Positions 40,401 to 46,400 of a stretch of DNA of 64,000 nucleotides are shown piece after piece; within the stretch, counting starts at the first letter, position 1, and the number at the start of each line of letters is the position of its first letter. The stretch lies in assembly GCF_055900595.2 (NCBI RefSeq), contig NZ_CM148325.1; one strand, written 5' to 3'. The position numbers are program-made.

Positions 40401-43400
40401 CATTTCTGCCTGCGCTTTGGAGCACAGTAAAGTGCAGGTATGACAAATCAATAACAGATATCCTGATGATATTCTCCCTCTGGCAACTAATAATTTCAGA
40501 TGAATGAAATATAAATAGAGCAAAAATATTACTCTCGTTGATTTTTTACAGGGGGCAGGTAGCGCGCAGTATGGTTGTCAGTCTGTTAAATGAAAAAGGA
40601 CTGTTGTTGGGACACGTTGTTTTTTGCTATATCAGCTCTTCCGGAAACAATAAACCTTATTACGAAAGAGGCACCTGGGATATCCGGTTTAAAGTTTGAT
40701 TATAATCAAATAAAAATTTGTTGCCGGAGGGCGTAGTTTTGTGGAACTGACAAATGATGTCAGGAGTATTTATATAATTCACTTACACGAGAGTAATACT
40801 ACAGGTGCAGTGATTTATGGCTGACTCAACGAGAAATCGCTCAGCGGAGCGTTTGATTGATATCCTTGTTGAATTACAGAATTATGGTGTGGTCAGTCGC
40901 CATAATTTGATGAAAAAATACAACATCACTGAGCGAACAGCATATCGTGATCTGAATATGCTTTCTCCCTTTATTGAAGCCTGTGGCGATGGAAAATACC
41001 GGCTTATTTCAGCAAGAGCAGGAAACCAGAGCAAAGAATCCCTGCACAAATCTCTGGCCAGGTTACTGGATACTGATGCGATTTTTCCTGAACGGGATGA
41101 AGGTTTCTGGCAGAAATTAGAAAACAGGGCAACCGAAAAGCATATTCGTGTTCAGTTTCATAACCCTGAGCACACTATCAGGGATGATTTAAGAAAATAT
41201 CTTGATGTTCTTGAAAAAGCGATCTGCAACAGTAATGTTTGTCAGATTGCATATGCCGGTAAGATCAGAATCGTTCATCCCTATAAATTAACTAATCAGA
41301 GAAGTATATGGTATTTGCTGGCTACTGAAGAGAACAAGTTAAAGTCGTTTTCATTAGCTAAAATAAAATGGCTGGATATAAAAAAAGAAAAGTTTGCAAA
41401 GAGTGATGAAATACAGTCACTAGTAAGTGAGTCATGTGACCCGTGGGTGAGCGACAAAACATTTGATGTTGTGTTGTTCATTCACAGTAATATCGCCCAT
41501 TATTTTTTGCGACGGGACTTACTTCCTTACCAGCAATTGCTACACAAACATGACAATGGCATTACGCTGTCATGCAAGGCTTCACATAAAAATCAAATTA
41601 TCCCGTTGATTTTATACTGGCTACCGAATGTTGAAATTATTGAACCAGTATGGCTGAAAGAAGTTATGTTAACAATGTTAGGAAAATACCTCACCGCTGA
41701 GAATGTTTCCTGAAATATTTCAGTTGACTGATGATAAAGCAATCTGTACAGGAGGAAAAGAATGGCGTTACCTTTCATTATTTTGGGTGTGGCTGCCGGC
41801 GCTGCGGCATTCGGCGGAAAAAAAGCTTACGATGGATATCAAAAAAAGTCAGAAGCAGAGGATATCCTCGAAAAAGCAAAAGAGCGTTACGAGGAGCATA
41901 AAGGAAAATTTGAGCAGTCTGAAGCTCAGACATCATCAAAATTAACAACGCTCGGAAATAAAGAGCTTGAGATTGGTAAAGATTTCAGTGAGTTCGACAG
42001 GATTGCTGCTGAGCTCCTGGCGCGTCTGGAAAAAGAGGGCAATAAAGATCTGAAACTGAGTGTCCCGCAACATAACATCAATAAGATTCAGAACCTGGCC
42101 ATTTCAGCAACAGAATATCTCAGTACGGTCGTTGCTGCCGGAGTTTCCGGGGCAGCTGCAGGTTTTGCTGTGTATAGCGGAGTGATGGCATTTGCTGCGG
42201 CTTCCACAGGTACACCCATTGCAGCGCTTTCTGGTGCCGCGGCTTATAACGCGACGATGGCGGCAATTGGTGGGGGCTCACTGGCTGCAGGGGGCATGGG
42301 AATGGCTGGTGGCGCAATGGTATTAGGCACTGCAGTGGCTGCACCGTTGATTGCCATTGCGGGCTGGGCTTACGACAGACATGCGACGAAAGCTCTTGAA
42401 AATGCCCATCAGTGTGCCTGCGATGTTGAACGGGCAGTTAAGAAAATGAATCTGGCCCGGGAGCATTTTGCAAAAGTTAATCAATACGTTGATGAAATTC
42501 TCGCTGCACTGAACAGAATGCATGCTGTATTTATTAAACACTATTTTGAGCCGCTTAAATCCATGCATTCTGTTATTACAGCACAACAGGATATCAGTGT
42601 ATCAGATGAAGTCATTGTGCTTATTGACCATGGATATTCACTGGCCGCTATTATGACGGATATTATTACAACGCCACTGTTTAAACCGCGGAAACAGGAA
42701 AATGGTGAGGCAGTGATAAAAGATAACGTAATTGAAATGGAAACGGATGATAATGGAATGAATGTTATTAATAAGGAAGAGCTGGATGATGTACTGGCCA
42801 GTTCGGTTGTGAAATTTGATGATTTTTCATCCCGGAGTTAATGATTTACCGGGCGTTTAAGCCCGGCTTTACAAGAAGTGAAATAACATGAATGTGGAAA
42901 AATTTGACTGGACAGAAGAGTTACATCAGACCATGGTGAAGAGCCTGGTTACATCATTCGGGCTGGATTTTCTGTTGTTAAATGATCGTAAGGGTGGTGA
43001 TGTTGACACTATCCATAATGTGCGTAATGGCATTTATGCCACGGAGGCTGAGCGACAGCGGTATGAAGGTCGTGGCGACTATGATTCTCATCATTACCAC
43101 AGCCATGAGAACTACATCGCGACGAACCGGAAAGGAAAGCGTGCACATCAGGCAGGGACTCTTACTGATGCATATACAGGCGAAGTGTTTGCTTCAGACG
43201 ATAAAAAAAATCTGGATCATATTATTTCCGCTAAAGAAATTCATGATGATCCGGGGAGAATTCTTGCTGAACGGGATGGTGCAGAACTGGCAAATGACGC
43301 TTCAAATCTGGCATTCACACATGAGTCGCTCAATAAATCAAAGAGAGCTGACTCCATGGATGCGTTTATTTGCACACTGCAGAAAAACAGAGAAGATACG

Positions 43401-46400
43401 TTAAAGCAGATAGCAGAGCTTGAATCTCAGGCAACGCTGACAGAAAAAGAAAGGAAACGTCTGATAAGTCTGAGAAAAAAAGCTGATGCAGATACTGAGC
43501 GTATGGAAAGGGCTGATAAATATGCCCGGGAAAAATACGAGGCCACGATTAATCAGAGCTATTACCTGAGTAGTAAGTTTGCTACTGCTGTCGCCAGTGC
43601 TTCACTTAATTCCGGTTTTCGTATGGGGACGCGACAGATGCTGGGGCTTATTCTTGCCGAGATCTGGTTCGAACTGAGGGAACGAATCCCGCATATTATC
43701 AGGCAGCAACGGAACTCATTCAGTGCCGGCAAATGTCTGTCCGAAATAACGTCAGCATTACGTGTCTGCCAGAAACGAGTACAGGAAAAATTCAGTTCTT
43801 TTTTAATTGCCTTTAAAGATGGAGTCATCGGAGGGATACTGTCAGGTATTACCACAACGCTGTTAAATATATTCCTGACAACGGAAAGAATGAGTGTCCG
43901 GCTTATCAGGGAAATGTGGAACAACCTCGTTCAGGCCTTTAAAGTCCTGGTATTTAACCCGGAGGGATTATCGCCGGGGCAGTTAGCCAAAGCGGTCACT
44001 AAACTGATAGCAGCAGGTGTGGCTGTTGCCGGTGGGGTGATGATAAATGAGGCGATGGCGCAGATCCTTATTTTTCCATTTGGTTCAGAGCTTGCTGCCT
44101 TTTGTGGTGCGCTGACGACAGGTATTCTCGGGCTGGTGATGAATTATTATCTCGAATATAGCGAGGTTATGCAGCGGGTATGGGCATTTCTGGACAAATT
44201 TAAGGACAAATTCCAGCGGTCACTGGAATACTTTCAGGCAGTCAATGCTGAACTTGATCGCTATCTTGTGGAACTTACTGCACTGGAATTTTCTGTTGAT
44301 GCTGCCGCGTTAAATCATTTTTCACTTCATCTGGATAGCGTAAACAGTGAGATAGAGCGCGGACTTCTGCTGAGAGAAGAAGTCAGCCGACGAGGGATTG
44401 CGTTGCCGTTTGAGTCAGGAAATGTGGCTTCTGTTCGTGACTGGTTAAATAAGCGATGAAATTACACCCTCCATTTCCCTGTAACCAGTGTGGGGCCTGT
44501 TGTCGTCATGTCAACAGGGCGGGTGAAACGCAATGTCTGGATCGTGGTGACGGTATTTGCCGTCACTATCAGACTGATTCTCATTTGTGTGCAATTTATG
44601 ATAAACGCCCACAGATTTGCCGGGTTGAAGACCAGTATTTACTGAATTATCAGTCTCAGTACAGCTGGCAGGAGTTTATTGCATTAAACCAGGCCGCCTG
44701 CCTTATTCTGAATAAACTGTAATGCCATTAATGGCGGCGTCAGGACAGAAACTGAGAGAACATAAAACAGTAAAATGTCATTCCGTTCAGCAGCCAGCGT
44801 TGCTTTCTCCGGCTGCTGTTATTGTAAGGCATTTTCGTTAAGAACGCAGAAGGAGAGGATCGTGAGATTGCTGTTAAAAGGGCTCGTCGGAATGGCGCTG
44901 GTCTGGCTTGTTATTGGTTTCGGGATGGAGTTATTTTTTCTCGCCGATCGGGTTCATCCGGCATTAAGAGTAATCGTTGGCCTGGGGATGTTATTCCTGA
45001 TGATAATGATTGCGGGTGGTATGTGCGGTTCTCTTCTGTCACGAAAGAAAACATCATGACGTTCCTGTTTACGCCGTTACATTTGTGGCGGCGGATGATA
45101 CCTGTTTTATGATTATTCAGAAAAATGTATTTACCTGTCACGGCATGTTCAGCGAGCGGCGCCGGACAGAAATATCGCTTTTACTCAATTATTATGAAAA
45201 TTAATCTTCCATTCATACACTGGCCACGGATTAGCAATGATAAGCGCCTCGTGTTATCAGTGGTTGTCTTTATCCTTTTTAATCTCCTTGTATCCTCAGG
45301 AGCGCATCTGATTTACCGGATATTATTCTTTATCCTGGCGCTTCTTATTATTAAGGCAATGAAATCGATTACGTTGCGTTTGATTCTTGCCTTCCCGTTC
45401 ACATTACTGACTGCTGCAGATATCAGTATCAGCCTGTATTCATGGTGTACATTTGGCACAACATTTAATGATGGTTTTGCAATCAGTATCCTTCAGACAG
45501 ATCCTGATGAAGTAATAAGAATGTTCAGGATGTATGTTGTTTATGTTATCGCATTTATTATCCTCTTTTTATTGTTCTTCTGTTCAGCAATAAATAAAAC
45601 GTCCTCATTGCCATCGGAAAATGTCACGGTAATTACATTTTTATTGTTAATTACAGTAACGTTATATTCTTCCTTCCAGTTTGCGTTGAAGAAACAGTAT
45701 CAAATAAATGAAGTTGATCCTTACATAGTCGCTTCCCGGTTTGCCACATATACCCCTTTCTTTAATCTGAACTATTTTGCACTGGCCGCAAAGGAGCATC
45801 AGAGATTAATGACGATTGCTGATACCATACCTCACTACGATCTGGTGATTACGGATAACAACACTGACGTATTTGTTCTGGTGATTGGTGAATCTGCAAG
45901 GACTGATAACATGTCCATTTACGGGTATTCGCGCCCTACCACACCAGAGCTTCAGAAACAGAAATCACGACTGAAACTGTTCACTCAGGCAATCAGTGGC
46001 GCACCTTACACCGCGCTGGCTGTTCCACTGGCGTTATCTGCCGATAGTGTACTGCATCATGATATCCGTAATTACCCTGATAACATTATCAACATGGCGA
46101 ATCAGGCGGGGTTCGATACCTGGTGGCTCAGTGCGCAGTCCGCTTTCCGACAGAACGGAACGGCTGTGGCCAGTATCGCCATGCGGGCCAGAAACAGAAT
46201 TTATGTCAGAGGCTATGATGAGTTACTGCTCCCACACCTGGCTGAAGCACTGAACAGTAATCCGGGGAGCAGGAAACTGATTGTTCTGCATCTGACGGGC
46301 AGCCATGAACCGGTTTGCAGTAACTGGCCCAGAGATAAAGCCGTGTTTAAACCGCTGGATACAGAAGAAGTCTGTTACGATAATTCCATTCATTATACCG

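Follow-up and report, generated by a model that had tools for sequence, protein, structure and literature searches.

The described systems that come closest to the locus analyzed here are membrane-acting defenses and WYL-regulated operons. Zorya and Kiwa are membrane-embedded defenses that target DNA (reviewed in PMC12904381), and SNIPE consists of one protein, which uses its DUF4041 domain to bind the tape measure protein and associates with ManYZ (PMC12904381). SNIPE discriminates incoming DNA by its location (10.1101/2025.11.03.685801) and the same has been proposed for Zorya (PMC12904381). CapW and BrxR are WYL repressors for which release by a ligand has been described (10.1101/2025.11.13.688357). 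In addition, PADLOC includes 145 untested phage defense candidates (PDC), which derive from genes located inside the operons of BREX, DISARM and type I restriction-modification (R-M) systems (Payne et al., 10.1101/2024.01.29.577857). Here, we analyzed a 64,000-nt stretch of Escherichia coli DNA (the window; NCBI RefSeq assembly GCF_055900595.2, contig NZ_CM148325.1) carrying a cassette of four genes, g1 to g4, which a sequence-only reading of the same DNA had singled out as a candidate undescribed defense or toxin module. We found that this cassette is a real, conserved and mobile WYL-regulated three-gene system (g2, g3 and g4, led by the regulator gene g1) located in defense islands.

Conservation of the cassette

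The cassette contains the following features:

40817–41713, + strand: g1, helix-turn-helix (HTH)-WYL-WCX transcriptional regulator of 298 amino acids (aa), by Pfam and PADLOC
41762–42841, + strand: g2, predicted membrane-associated helical-bundle protein of 359 aa, by PADLOC PDC-M09A, AlphaFold2 (AF2) and hydropathy
42849–42866, + strand: GC-rich hairpin CCGGGC-GTTTAA-GCCCGG in the g2-g3 spacer, read from the sequence
42888–44459, + strand: g3, protein of 523 aa with an N-terminal soluble domain and hydrophobic helices, by PADLOC PDC-M40B and AF2
44456–44722, + strand: g4, CxxCxxCC (YkgJ-type) cysteine-cluster protein of 88 aa, translationally coupled to g3 through an ATGA overlap

The open reading frames (ORFs) on the + strand agree in every respect with the layout first described for this locus: the four genes are co-directional, g1 and g2 are separated by 48 bp, g2 and g3 by 46 bp, and g3 and g4 share an ATGA. 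A scan of one genome per species yielded 170 genomes with a relative. Synteny counts were obtained by applying hidden Markov models (HMMs) to six-frame ORFs of 80 loci, covering Gamma-, Beta- and Alphaproteobacteria, Desulfovibrio and several Firmicutes. g2 adjoins g3 on the same strand in 79 of the 80 loci, and in the exception the sequence available upstream is limited to 160 nt. Of the 80 loci, 76 contain g4, whose start lies between −67 and +10 nt from the stop of g3 in 71 of these 76. Synteny of the trio in 76–79 of 80 loci across such distant phyla is far beyond what chance would produce. The genes follow the order g2-g3-g4 in Proteobacteria; in Firmicutes, Desulfovibrio and Pararhodospirillum, they are arranged as g3-g4-g2. 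Since the linkage is kept despite the changed order, these results are strong evidence that the products of g2, g3 and g4 work together. The sequence-only reading had made its proposal depend on the conservation of the gene neighborhood, and g2 to g4 do co-occur across phyla.

An adjacent pair of g2 and g3 was also found in the lytic jumbo phages LAh10, D3, D6 and D9 of Aeromonas (~260 kb), with identities of 35% and 30%. The pair comes without the WYL gene and without the CxxCxxCC gene, and a PagP-like gene is found 3′ of it. Its position in LAh10 is as follows:

L094 3979–6575, equal to NC_070956.1 95366–97962: g2 and g3 pair, gp079-gp080 of Aeromonas phage LAh10

Within E. coli, the cassette was detected in 373 of 5426 complete genomes (6.9%; coverage of at least 80%) and its location was chromosomal every time. 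The 4.4 kb cassette region of the window is 100% identical to that of APEC O2-211 and of several poultry isolates. RefSeq annotates matching ORFs in identical E. coli DNA under the names helix-turn-helix regulator (g1), hypothetical protein (g2 and g3) and, if annotated, YkgJ family cysteine cluster protein (g4). This last gene is missed by RefSeq in many E. coli with identical DNA: APEC O2-211 has no coding sequence annotated from g3 up to the gene that comes after it, and g4 is annotated in FEX669. The homologous cassette of Vibrio cholerae encodes a g3 protein that is 42% identical. The hairpin of the g2-g3 spacer has no T-run on its 3′ side and was not scored by the terminator scan; it could be an mRNA-processing or stability element. 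Finally, an ORF with two transmembrane (TM) segments (44775–45059) was considered as a further member of the cassette and rejected, its sole homologue among the 80 loci being found in L011, a nearly identical copy.

A candidate nuclease domain in g3

g3 matches the PADLOC family PDC-M40B (E = 4.6e-42) and belongs to a large family (1115 clusters at 50% identity; E ≤ 1e-3). The protein is composed of an N-terminal soluble domain (residues ~1–225), which contains a conserved motif and a helical hairpin, and of a C-terminal helical domain. The AF2 model presents a pLDDT above 90 at residues ~60–220. Based on hydropathy, three moderately hydrophobic helices were identified at residues 309–331, 372–396 and 402–421. 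The sequence-only reading had noticed the motif, a coiled coil and a multi-helix hydrophobic C-terminus; the motif, the helical hairpin and the hydrophobic helices are present. The motif reads LDHIISAKEIH...NLAFTHESLNKSK and falls within the following feature:

43206–43343, + strand: candidate ββα-metal (His-Me finger) core of g3, residues 107–152, NLDH(111)I...N(140)LAFTHESLN(149)KSK

Across 29 sequences with 28–47% identity to the query, no exception was found to H111, N140 and N149, and the conservation of D110 is at least 90%. D110-H111, N140 and N149 are also conserved in 35 closer homologues and in the Aeromonas phage copies. In the model, where this region has a pLDDT above 90, a strand (107–111) ends in the DH, N140 precedes a second strand (141–145) and N149 lies on the helix that follows (146–152). 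In the positions of these residues, g3 fits the His-Me layout, in which the catalytic His (DH) ends a strand and is followed by a structural Asn and by a metal-binding Asn/His on the next helix. As judged from sequence and model, this arrangement appears to match a ββα-metal finger with an insert, as found in DUF1524/GmrSD_C.

Profile comparisons were less decisive. The Pfam GmrSD_C profile matches g3 weakly (0.18 for the query; three of the 29 members at 0.1 or below; 1.9e-3 for the best member). The alignment of the N-terminal domain against that of DUF1524 with hhalign gave P = 9e-4 and a probability of 23%, covering only the NL...N.SK part. These two weak matches are mutually consistent. 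The N-terminal domain had no match in PDB or NCBIfam profile searches and fold searches gave nothing specific; more broadly, comparing PDB chains with g2, g3, g4 and the N-terminal domain of g3, by sequence and by profile, yielded no relative, and PHROGs yielded no match for g2 to g4. The possible His-Me/HNH nuclease of the sequence-only reading has in its favor an invariant motif and a fitting secondary structure, together with weak profile matches and no specific match in the fold searches. Because every statistical test was weak, we keep the assignment of the N-terminal domain as a His-Me nuclease as our leading hypothesis and not as a finding. Upstream of the motif, other residues are invariant (GGDVDTIHNVR, Y65, Y70-H71, D94 and Y96). 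With these additional polar residues, the domain probably works through an active or binding site that is more extensive than that of a minimal HNH. Among the homologues P0001–P0240, the database name "cobalamin adenosyltransferase" is common for those of g3, and it was rejected since it has no Pfam or NCBIfam support.

The N-terminal motif was retained in all the g3 variants examined, several of which present unusual architectures. Family member P0372 (L099 589–3042) has one more TM helix and ends in an OmpA-like domain of the peptidoglycan-binding type (Pfam OmpA, 1.3e-6, with weak Pal/MotB-type NCBIfam matches), and a divergent XRE-type HTH gene replaces the WYL gene upstream. The extra TM helix and OmpA-like domain suggest that the usual C-terminus of g3 would be cytoplasmic and that the family is linked to the envelope. 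On a small mobilizable plasmid, the gene immediately 3′ of the g3-like variant P0284 (873 aa; L100 4883–9980) encodes a Dynamin_N GTPase of 819 aa instead of g2. We considered whether g2 is related to this partner, and hhalign found no similarity. In a third locus (L092 867–11760), the N-terminal extension of a g3-like variant matches Bunzi BnzB (1e-20). The larger operon to which this variant belongs encodes, in order, Abi_2, WYL, a protein of 554 aa, the g3-like variant, a protein of 400 aa, a DUF87 ATPase, and a toxin (WHH/Colicin-DNase) with a SUKH immunity protein after it.

The g2 and g4 proteins

g2 matches the PADLOC family PDC-M09A (5e-22) and has no relative in Pfam, NCBIfam, PHROG or PDB. 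Its AF2 model (pLDDT 63.8) presents two long helices (residues 11–126 and 206–303) around a core that is left unmodeled (123–206). By hydropathy, the N-terminus forms a hydrophobic helix with KK after it, and three stretches of the core are moderately hydrophobic. A Gly/Ala-rich segment (residues ~119–204) with conserved Ser, Thr, Tyr and Asn is nearly invariant and constitutes the most conserved region of the protein, and 41 of the 73 invariant columns fall within residues 132–208. A hydrophobic N-terminus, a long coiled coil and a glycine-zipper-like segment had been read from the sequence, and the hydrophobic N-terminus, long predicted helices and the Gly/Ala segment were found. The search for a fold of the ClyA-type α-pore-forming toxins, i.e., a ClyA/Hbl/YaxAB helical bundle with a hydrophobic head, gave no specific match. 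Other relations were discarded. The name "chemotaxis protein", common among g2 homologues in databases, has no Pfam or NCBIfam support, and paralogy of g2 and g3 received an hhalign probability of 1.7%. For the cassette proteins as a whole, NCBIfam gave no meaningful match, FtsW (2.6e-4, for a cutoff of 337 bits) being an artefact of a hydrophobic segment.

g4 contains eight cysteines (C9, C12, C15, C16, C35, C45, C55 and C82), each present in 97–99% of 77 homologues. The CxxCxxCC profile PF03692 matches 13 of 17 members of the g4 family at E ≤ 1e-3, with a best value of 6.7e-7 and a value of 1.1e-3 for the query. By these sequence matches, g4 is a protein of the CxxCxxCC (PF03692, YkgJ) family, as initially proposed, and four invariant cysteines come in addition to those of the motif. 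We found no solved structure for the g4 family.

The regulator and its putative operator

The sequence-only reading had placed a regulator of the BrxR/CapW type at the head of the operon. g1 matches Pfam WYL (1.6e-7; residues 128–184), WCX (1.3e-6; residues 216–291) and, weakly, HTH_11 (0.0019; residues 12–49), as well as the WYL model of PADLOC (9e-21). From its domains, g1 is a standard HTH-WYL-WCX regulator. The BrxR type, however, did not stand: WHD_BrxR (PF26109) and BrxR_CTD (PF26107) are absent from the Pfam matches of g1, which is a generic WYL-WCX protein, whereas the true BrxR found beside the V. cholerae homologue carries both. A WYL gene is located directly upstream and is co-directional in 44 of the 80 loci, and about 10 more loci have one within 2 kb or in divergent orientation (iterated WYL HMM); 69 of the 80 loci have room for an upstream WYL gene. 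The WYL-adjacent loci include Firmicutes and Desulfovibrio.

We identified two elements upstream of g1:

40747–40763, strand-neutral: putative WYL operator, palindrome CTGACA-AATGA-TGTCAG with conserved arms and a variable spacer
40771–40778, + strand: −10-like box TATATAAT, 8 nt 3′ of the palindrome and conserved across genera

The pattern CTGAC-N7-GTCAG has a single match in the 64 kb of the window, for 0.04 expected. When the regions 5′ of the WYL gene are aligned across Enterobacterales, the arms CTGACA-N5-TGTCAG are invariant and the 5-nt spacer varies by genus. The same arms with other spacers are found ~60 nt 5′ of the WYL gene in L011, whose locus resembles that of the window, in four Citrobacter loci, in L017 (Enterobacterales) and in L021 (Pectobacterium). 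The relaxed pattern TGAC-N7-GTCA was found in two Providencia loci and in one Acinetobacter locus. The alignment of the regions 5′ of the WYL genes also revealed ATATAAT as conserved across genera. A simple promoter scan returned nothing above shuffles and did not list the TATATAAT box, which we read from the sequence as a probable −10 box. Given such a −10 box, the palindrome would span the −35 and spacer region, which is the usual geometry of a repressor. CTGACA-N5-TGTCAG is probably the operator bound by g1.

Several other observations were made upstream of g2. A second palindrome, TTGATTATAATCAA, is located at 40696–40709, ~110 nt 5′ of the start of g1, and it is partly kept (TGA...ATCAAATAAA) in the upstream regions of Citrobacter and Pectobacterium. 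In the copy of the cassette on a Klebsiella plasmid, an IS3 insertion leaves a truncated WYL gene (L095 5385–5738), and the trio may be derepressed in this copy. V. cholerae has a small TerB-like gene (~130 aa; L009 5606–5998) inserted after the WYL gene and before g2, and such a gene was also found in 5 of the 80 loci (L029, L049, L051, L059 and L060), which belong to Vibrio, Moraxella, Mesocricetibacter and Oceanisphaera.

Genomic context and mobility

In the window, an integrase ORF (48447–49667) and a tRNA-Phe gene (49814–49889) are located ~3.7 kb downstream of the cassette and belong to a genomic island. The following genes, found with PADLOC, lie upstream of the cassette in the same tRNA-Phe island:

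11709–12875: PD-Lambda-1-like gene (5.5e-89)
13069–14856: NERD and UvrD helicase (2.5e-139)
16785–18491: Old-family ATPase-nuclease (1.5e-78)
24877–30774: complete type I R-M system (PADLOC hsdR and hsdM, the adjacent ORF being the S subunit per RefSeq)

These results support the view, already taken from the sequence, of an island dense with defense genes and close to an integrase. The association was also observed elsewhere. The cassette of V. cholerae lies beside a BrxR gene and BREX genes, and HEC-05 is found ~5 kb away from the cassette of a Klebsiella IncFIB plasmid. We further inspected the 20 largest flanking ORFs from 20 diverse loci. Three of these ORFs were further WYL regulators and, among the other 17, four were defense genes (MADS mad3/mad8, Azaca ZacB, a type I restriction endonuclease and a type III restriction endonuclease). 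The cassette was found on 69 plasmids, 39 of which are from Klebsiella.

The cassette of the window also belongs to a module of ~10 kb (39579–49937) that comprises g1 to g4, the small ORF with two TM segments and the integrase, as well as the genes for an outer-membrane protein, a phosphoethanolamine transferase and a TPR protein. In APEC O2-211, this module occupies a pheV-type island, whereas FEX669 carries it near dsbD/cutA, at another tRNA-Phe locus. The phosphoethanolamine transferase gene (45125–46798; EptA/MCR-type by name) is directly 3′ of the cassette, inside the island.

Possible functions of the cassette

The reading that we favor, while holding it tentatively, is that the cassette is a mobile accessory defense against incoming foreign DNA (phages and possibly plasmids) that relies on a membrane-tethered nuclease, with g2 and g3 (and perhaps g4) as its core and g1 as its repressor. 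Under this model, g1 would sit on the CTGACA-N5-TGTCAG palindrome over the promoter and keep expression low, until a ligand derived from infection or DNA damage frees it, as for CapW and BrxR (10.1101/2025.11.13.688357). g2 and g3 would be located, possibly as a complex, at the inner membrane through helices rich in Gly, Ala and Thr, the large helical domains of both facing the cytoplasm, and g4, which is translationally coupled to g3, would be a Cys8 metal or Fe-S subunit that stabilizes or gates g3. The GmrSD_C-like His-Me nuclease head of g3, held at the membrane, would then cut DNA during its entry. Self and non-self would be distinguished by location and not by sequence or modification, as in SNIPE and as proposed for Zorya, which relies on a different sensor. 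The g2 and g3 pair of the Aeromonas phages would, in turn, serve superinfection exclusion. A more specific version, a new class of immune complex embedded in the membrane, in which a glycine zipper of g2 and an Fe-S/Zn subunit formed by g4 sense a physical or redox change of the membrane at the entry of phage DNA and gate the His-Me nuclease of g3, seems to us rather unlikely.

Several points weigh against a membrane-tethered defense nuclease. The hydrophobic helices of g3 are just moderately hydrophobic, and three of them would place the two ends on opposite sides of the membrane. A phage-entry sensor was not identified in the cassette. g4 has no known role in any defense system, and we found no paper joining CxxCxxCC proteins with phage defense. 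Tight WYL repression would also fit a toxic abortive-infection effector. Finally, several loci sit among housekeeping genes, which is also where small mobile islets are found.

The foremost rival to direct attack on incoming DNA is abortive infection, which we consider unlikely: the Gly/Ala segments of g2, and perhaps of g3, would form a pore or lesion, the membrane potential would collapse, g3 would degrade DNA indiscriminately and the cell would die before phage release. The nearly invariant Gly/Ala core of g2, with its conserved polar residues, is conserved far beyond the needs of a simple anchor, and the segments of g2 and g3 are moderately hydrophobic, like those of latent pore-formers. 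The AF2 model of g2, an elongated helical bundle with an unmodeled hydrophobic tip, and the dedicated repressor of most loci, which fits a toxic cargo, point in the same direction. A membrane-disrupting effector, part of the working hypothesis of the sequence-only reading, is one of two live mechanisms. However, lytic jumbo phages carry g2 and g3 without a regulator, which fits superinfection exclusion better than suicide, and for this reason we place abortive infection second to a direct attack on DNA that enters the cell. The cassette could also have no immune role. WYL regulators such as PafBC and DriD control DNA-damage regulons outside phage defense, and g1 could likewise sense single-stranded DNA or damage in a DNA-damage or envelope-stress module whose membrane proteins act in membrane repair or remodeling, or in DNA processing at the membrane. 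This possibility, which appears quite unlikely to us, agrees with the TerB-like gene, from a stress family, that separates g2 from the WYL gene in V. cholerae and recurs in 5 of the 80 loci, with the pairing of a distant g3 variant with a dynamin-like GTPase, a membrane-remodeling family, with the weak matches of g2 homologues to LeoBC and with the loci found among housekeeping genes. It is harder to reconcile with a patchy and strain-specific distribution (6.9% of E. coli), with the occurrence of the cassette on plasmids, in islands and in phages, and with its enrichment next to defense genes; moreover, the LeoBC matches may be compositional, and hhalign did not relate g2 to the dynamin partner.

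Very unlikely, in our view, is an addiction or competition module with g3 as the toxin and with g4, which is coupled to it, or g2 as the antidote, stabilizing islands and plasmids or acting on neighboring bacteria. The tight translational coupling of g3 and g4, the frequency of the cassette on plasmids and in islands, and the distant variant whose operon also encodes a WHH/Colicin-DNase toxin together with SUKH immunity would all agree with such a module. But the cassette proteins contain no secretion signal or delivery domain, three conserved genes and a WYL sensor exceed the needs of a typical toxin-antitoxin pair, and the phage copies and some variants keep g3 without g4, which would be lethal if g4 were the antitoxin.

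If the cassette does defend its hosts, it would represent a native and fairly common addition to the short list of membrane-acting defenses (SNIPE, Zorya and Kiwa), with a range that extends from 6.9% of complete E. coli to many Klebsiella plasmids and to the neighborhood of BREX in V. cholerae. It would also provide a first function for two large orphan families that are mislabeled as "cobalamin adenosyltransferase" and "chemotaxis protein", as well as a first defense role for the CxxCxxCC family. Two untested PADLOC candidate families would become tractable in E. coli as a system with a defined repressor and operator, of which the phage-borne g2 and g3 pair would be a natural minimal version. 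Should the cassette sense the membrane as outlined above, it would be the first defense system with a CxxCxxCC metal-cluster protein, and its g2 and g3 core would have been captured by phages for superinfection exclusion.

Comparison with known systems

The cassette is without a characterized homologue: as far as sequence comparison reaches, no housekeeping pathway and no named and characterized system matches it. We found no paper naming or testing the cassette in the literature on PDC-M09/PDC-M40, on the four WP accessions, on CxxCxxCC proteins and phage defense, or on the combination of dynamin, HNH and TM segments, and the main text of DefensePredictor does not mention it. The view that the system is undescribed therefore holds for named and characterized systems, but the cassette is not entirely unlisted, since g2 and g3 fall in the PADLOC families PDC-M09A and PDC-M40B.

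The similarity to SNIPE lies in the proposed logic of an inner-membrane nuclease that singles out incoming DNA by location, an activity that is only predicted for the cassette. The two are not homologous: the cassette relies on two or three proteins, its nuclease motif is His-Me-like instead of SNIPE-type, and DUF4041 is not found in the Pfam scans of g2, g3 and g4, nor did any other named PADLOC model match. Zorya and Kiwa likewise combine one or more membrane components with a DNA-targeting effector, as predicted here, and the OmpA-like domain of P0372 recalls ZorB. However, the cassette has no MotAB-like stators, it joins the nuclease-like domain and the membrane helices in one polypeptide (g3), and PADLOC returned no match to ZorA-D or KwaA/B.

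At the level of individual proteins, the candidate core of g3 shares with GmrSD_C/DUF1524 proteins (BrxU, HEC-05) a DH on a strand, an insert of ~28 residues and the NL...N.SK element. HEC-05, a genuine DUF1524 protein of the GmrSD-like type, reads HIDHL...NLHLLNHSQNISK where g3 reads LDHI...NLAFTHESLNKSK, which reveals a common layout. g3 differs from the GmrSD family in that it has no DUF262 NTPase domain, its profile similarity is below significance and its upstream invariant residues lie outside DUF1524. g1 resembles BrxR and CapW by its HTH-WYL-WCX architecture, its position upstream of the operon and the palindrome over the promoter, but differs from BrxR in that WHD_BrxR and BrxR_CTD do not match it. 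g4 shares with YkgJ (UPF0153, PF03692) the CxxCxxCC motif and further conserved cysteines, whereas it forms a short (84–107 aa) and stand-alone subfamily that is always coupled to g3. Dynamin-like proteins (LeoA/LeoBC; DynA, PMC8844932) recall g2, a predicted helical bundle with a hydrophobic tip that would insert into the membrane. Homologues of g2 match LeoBC of PADLOC weakly (7e-7 to 4e-4), in their C-terminal part only; the g2 of E. coli is unmatched and Pfam detects no GTPase domain in it. On these sequence similarities, a relation of g2 to dynamins may be considered as a lead.

The closest relatives of the cassette are the candidates PDC-M09 and PDC-M40, which are multi-gene and defense-associated like the cassette itself. 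All the homologues tested (Vibrio, Pseudomonas, Firmicutes and Desulfovibrio) match both PDC-M09A and PDC-M40B with moderate E-values (1e-22 to 1e-64). PDC-M09 is a two-gene system (A then B), whereas the cassette matches PDC-M09A alone and has no gene matching PDC-M09B. PDC-M40 is a three-gene system (A, B, then C), whereas the cassette matches PDC-M40B alone, with g2 and g4 matching neither A nor C. No PDC model matches g4 or the WYL gene. Since one component each of PDC-M09 and PDC-M40 is matched, the cassette represents a related subfamily that unites both families and is a member of neither system.

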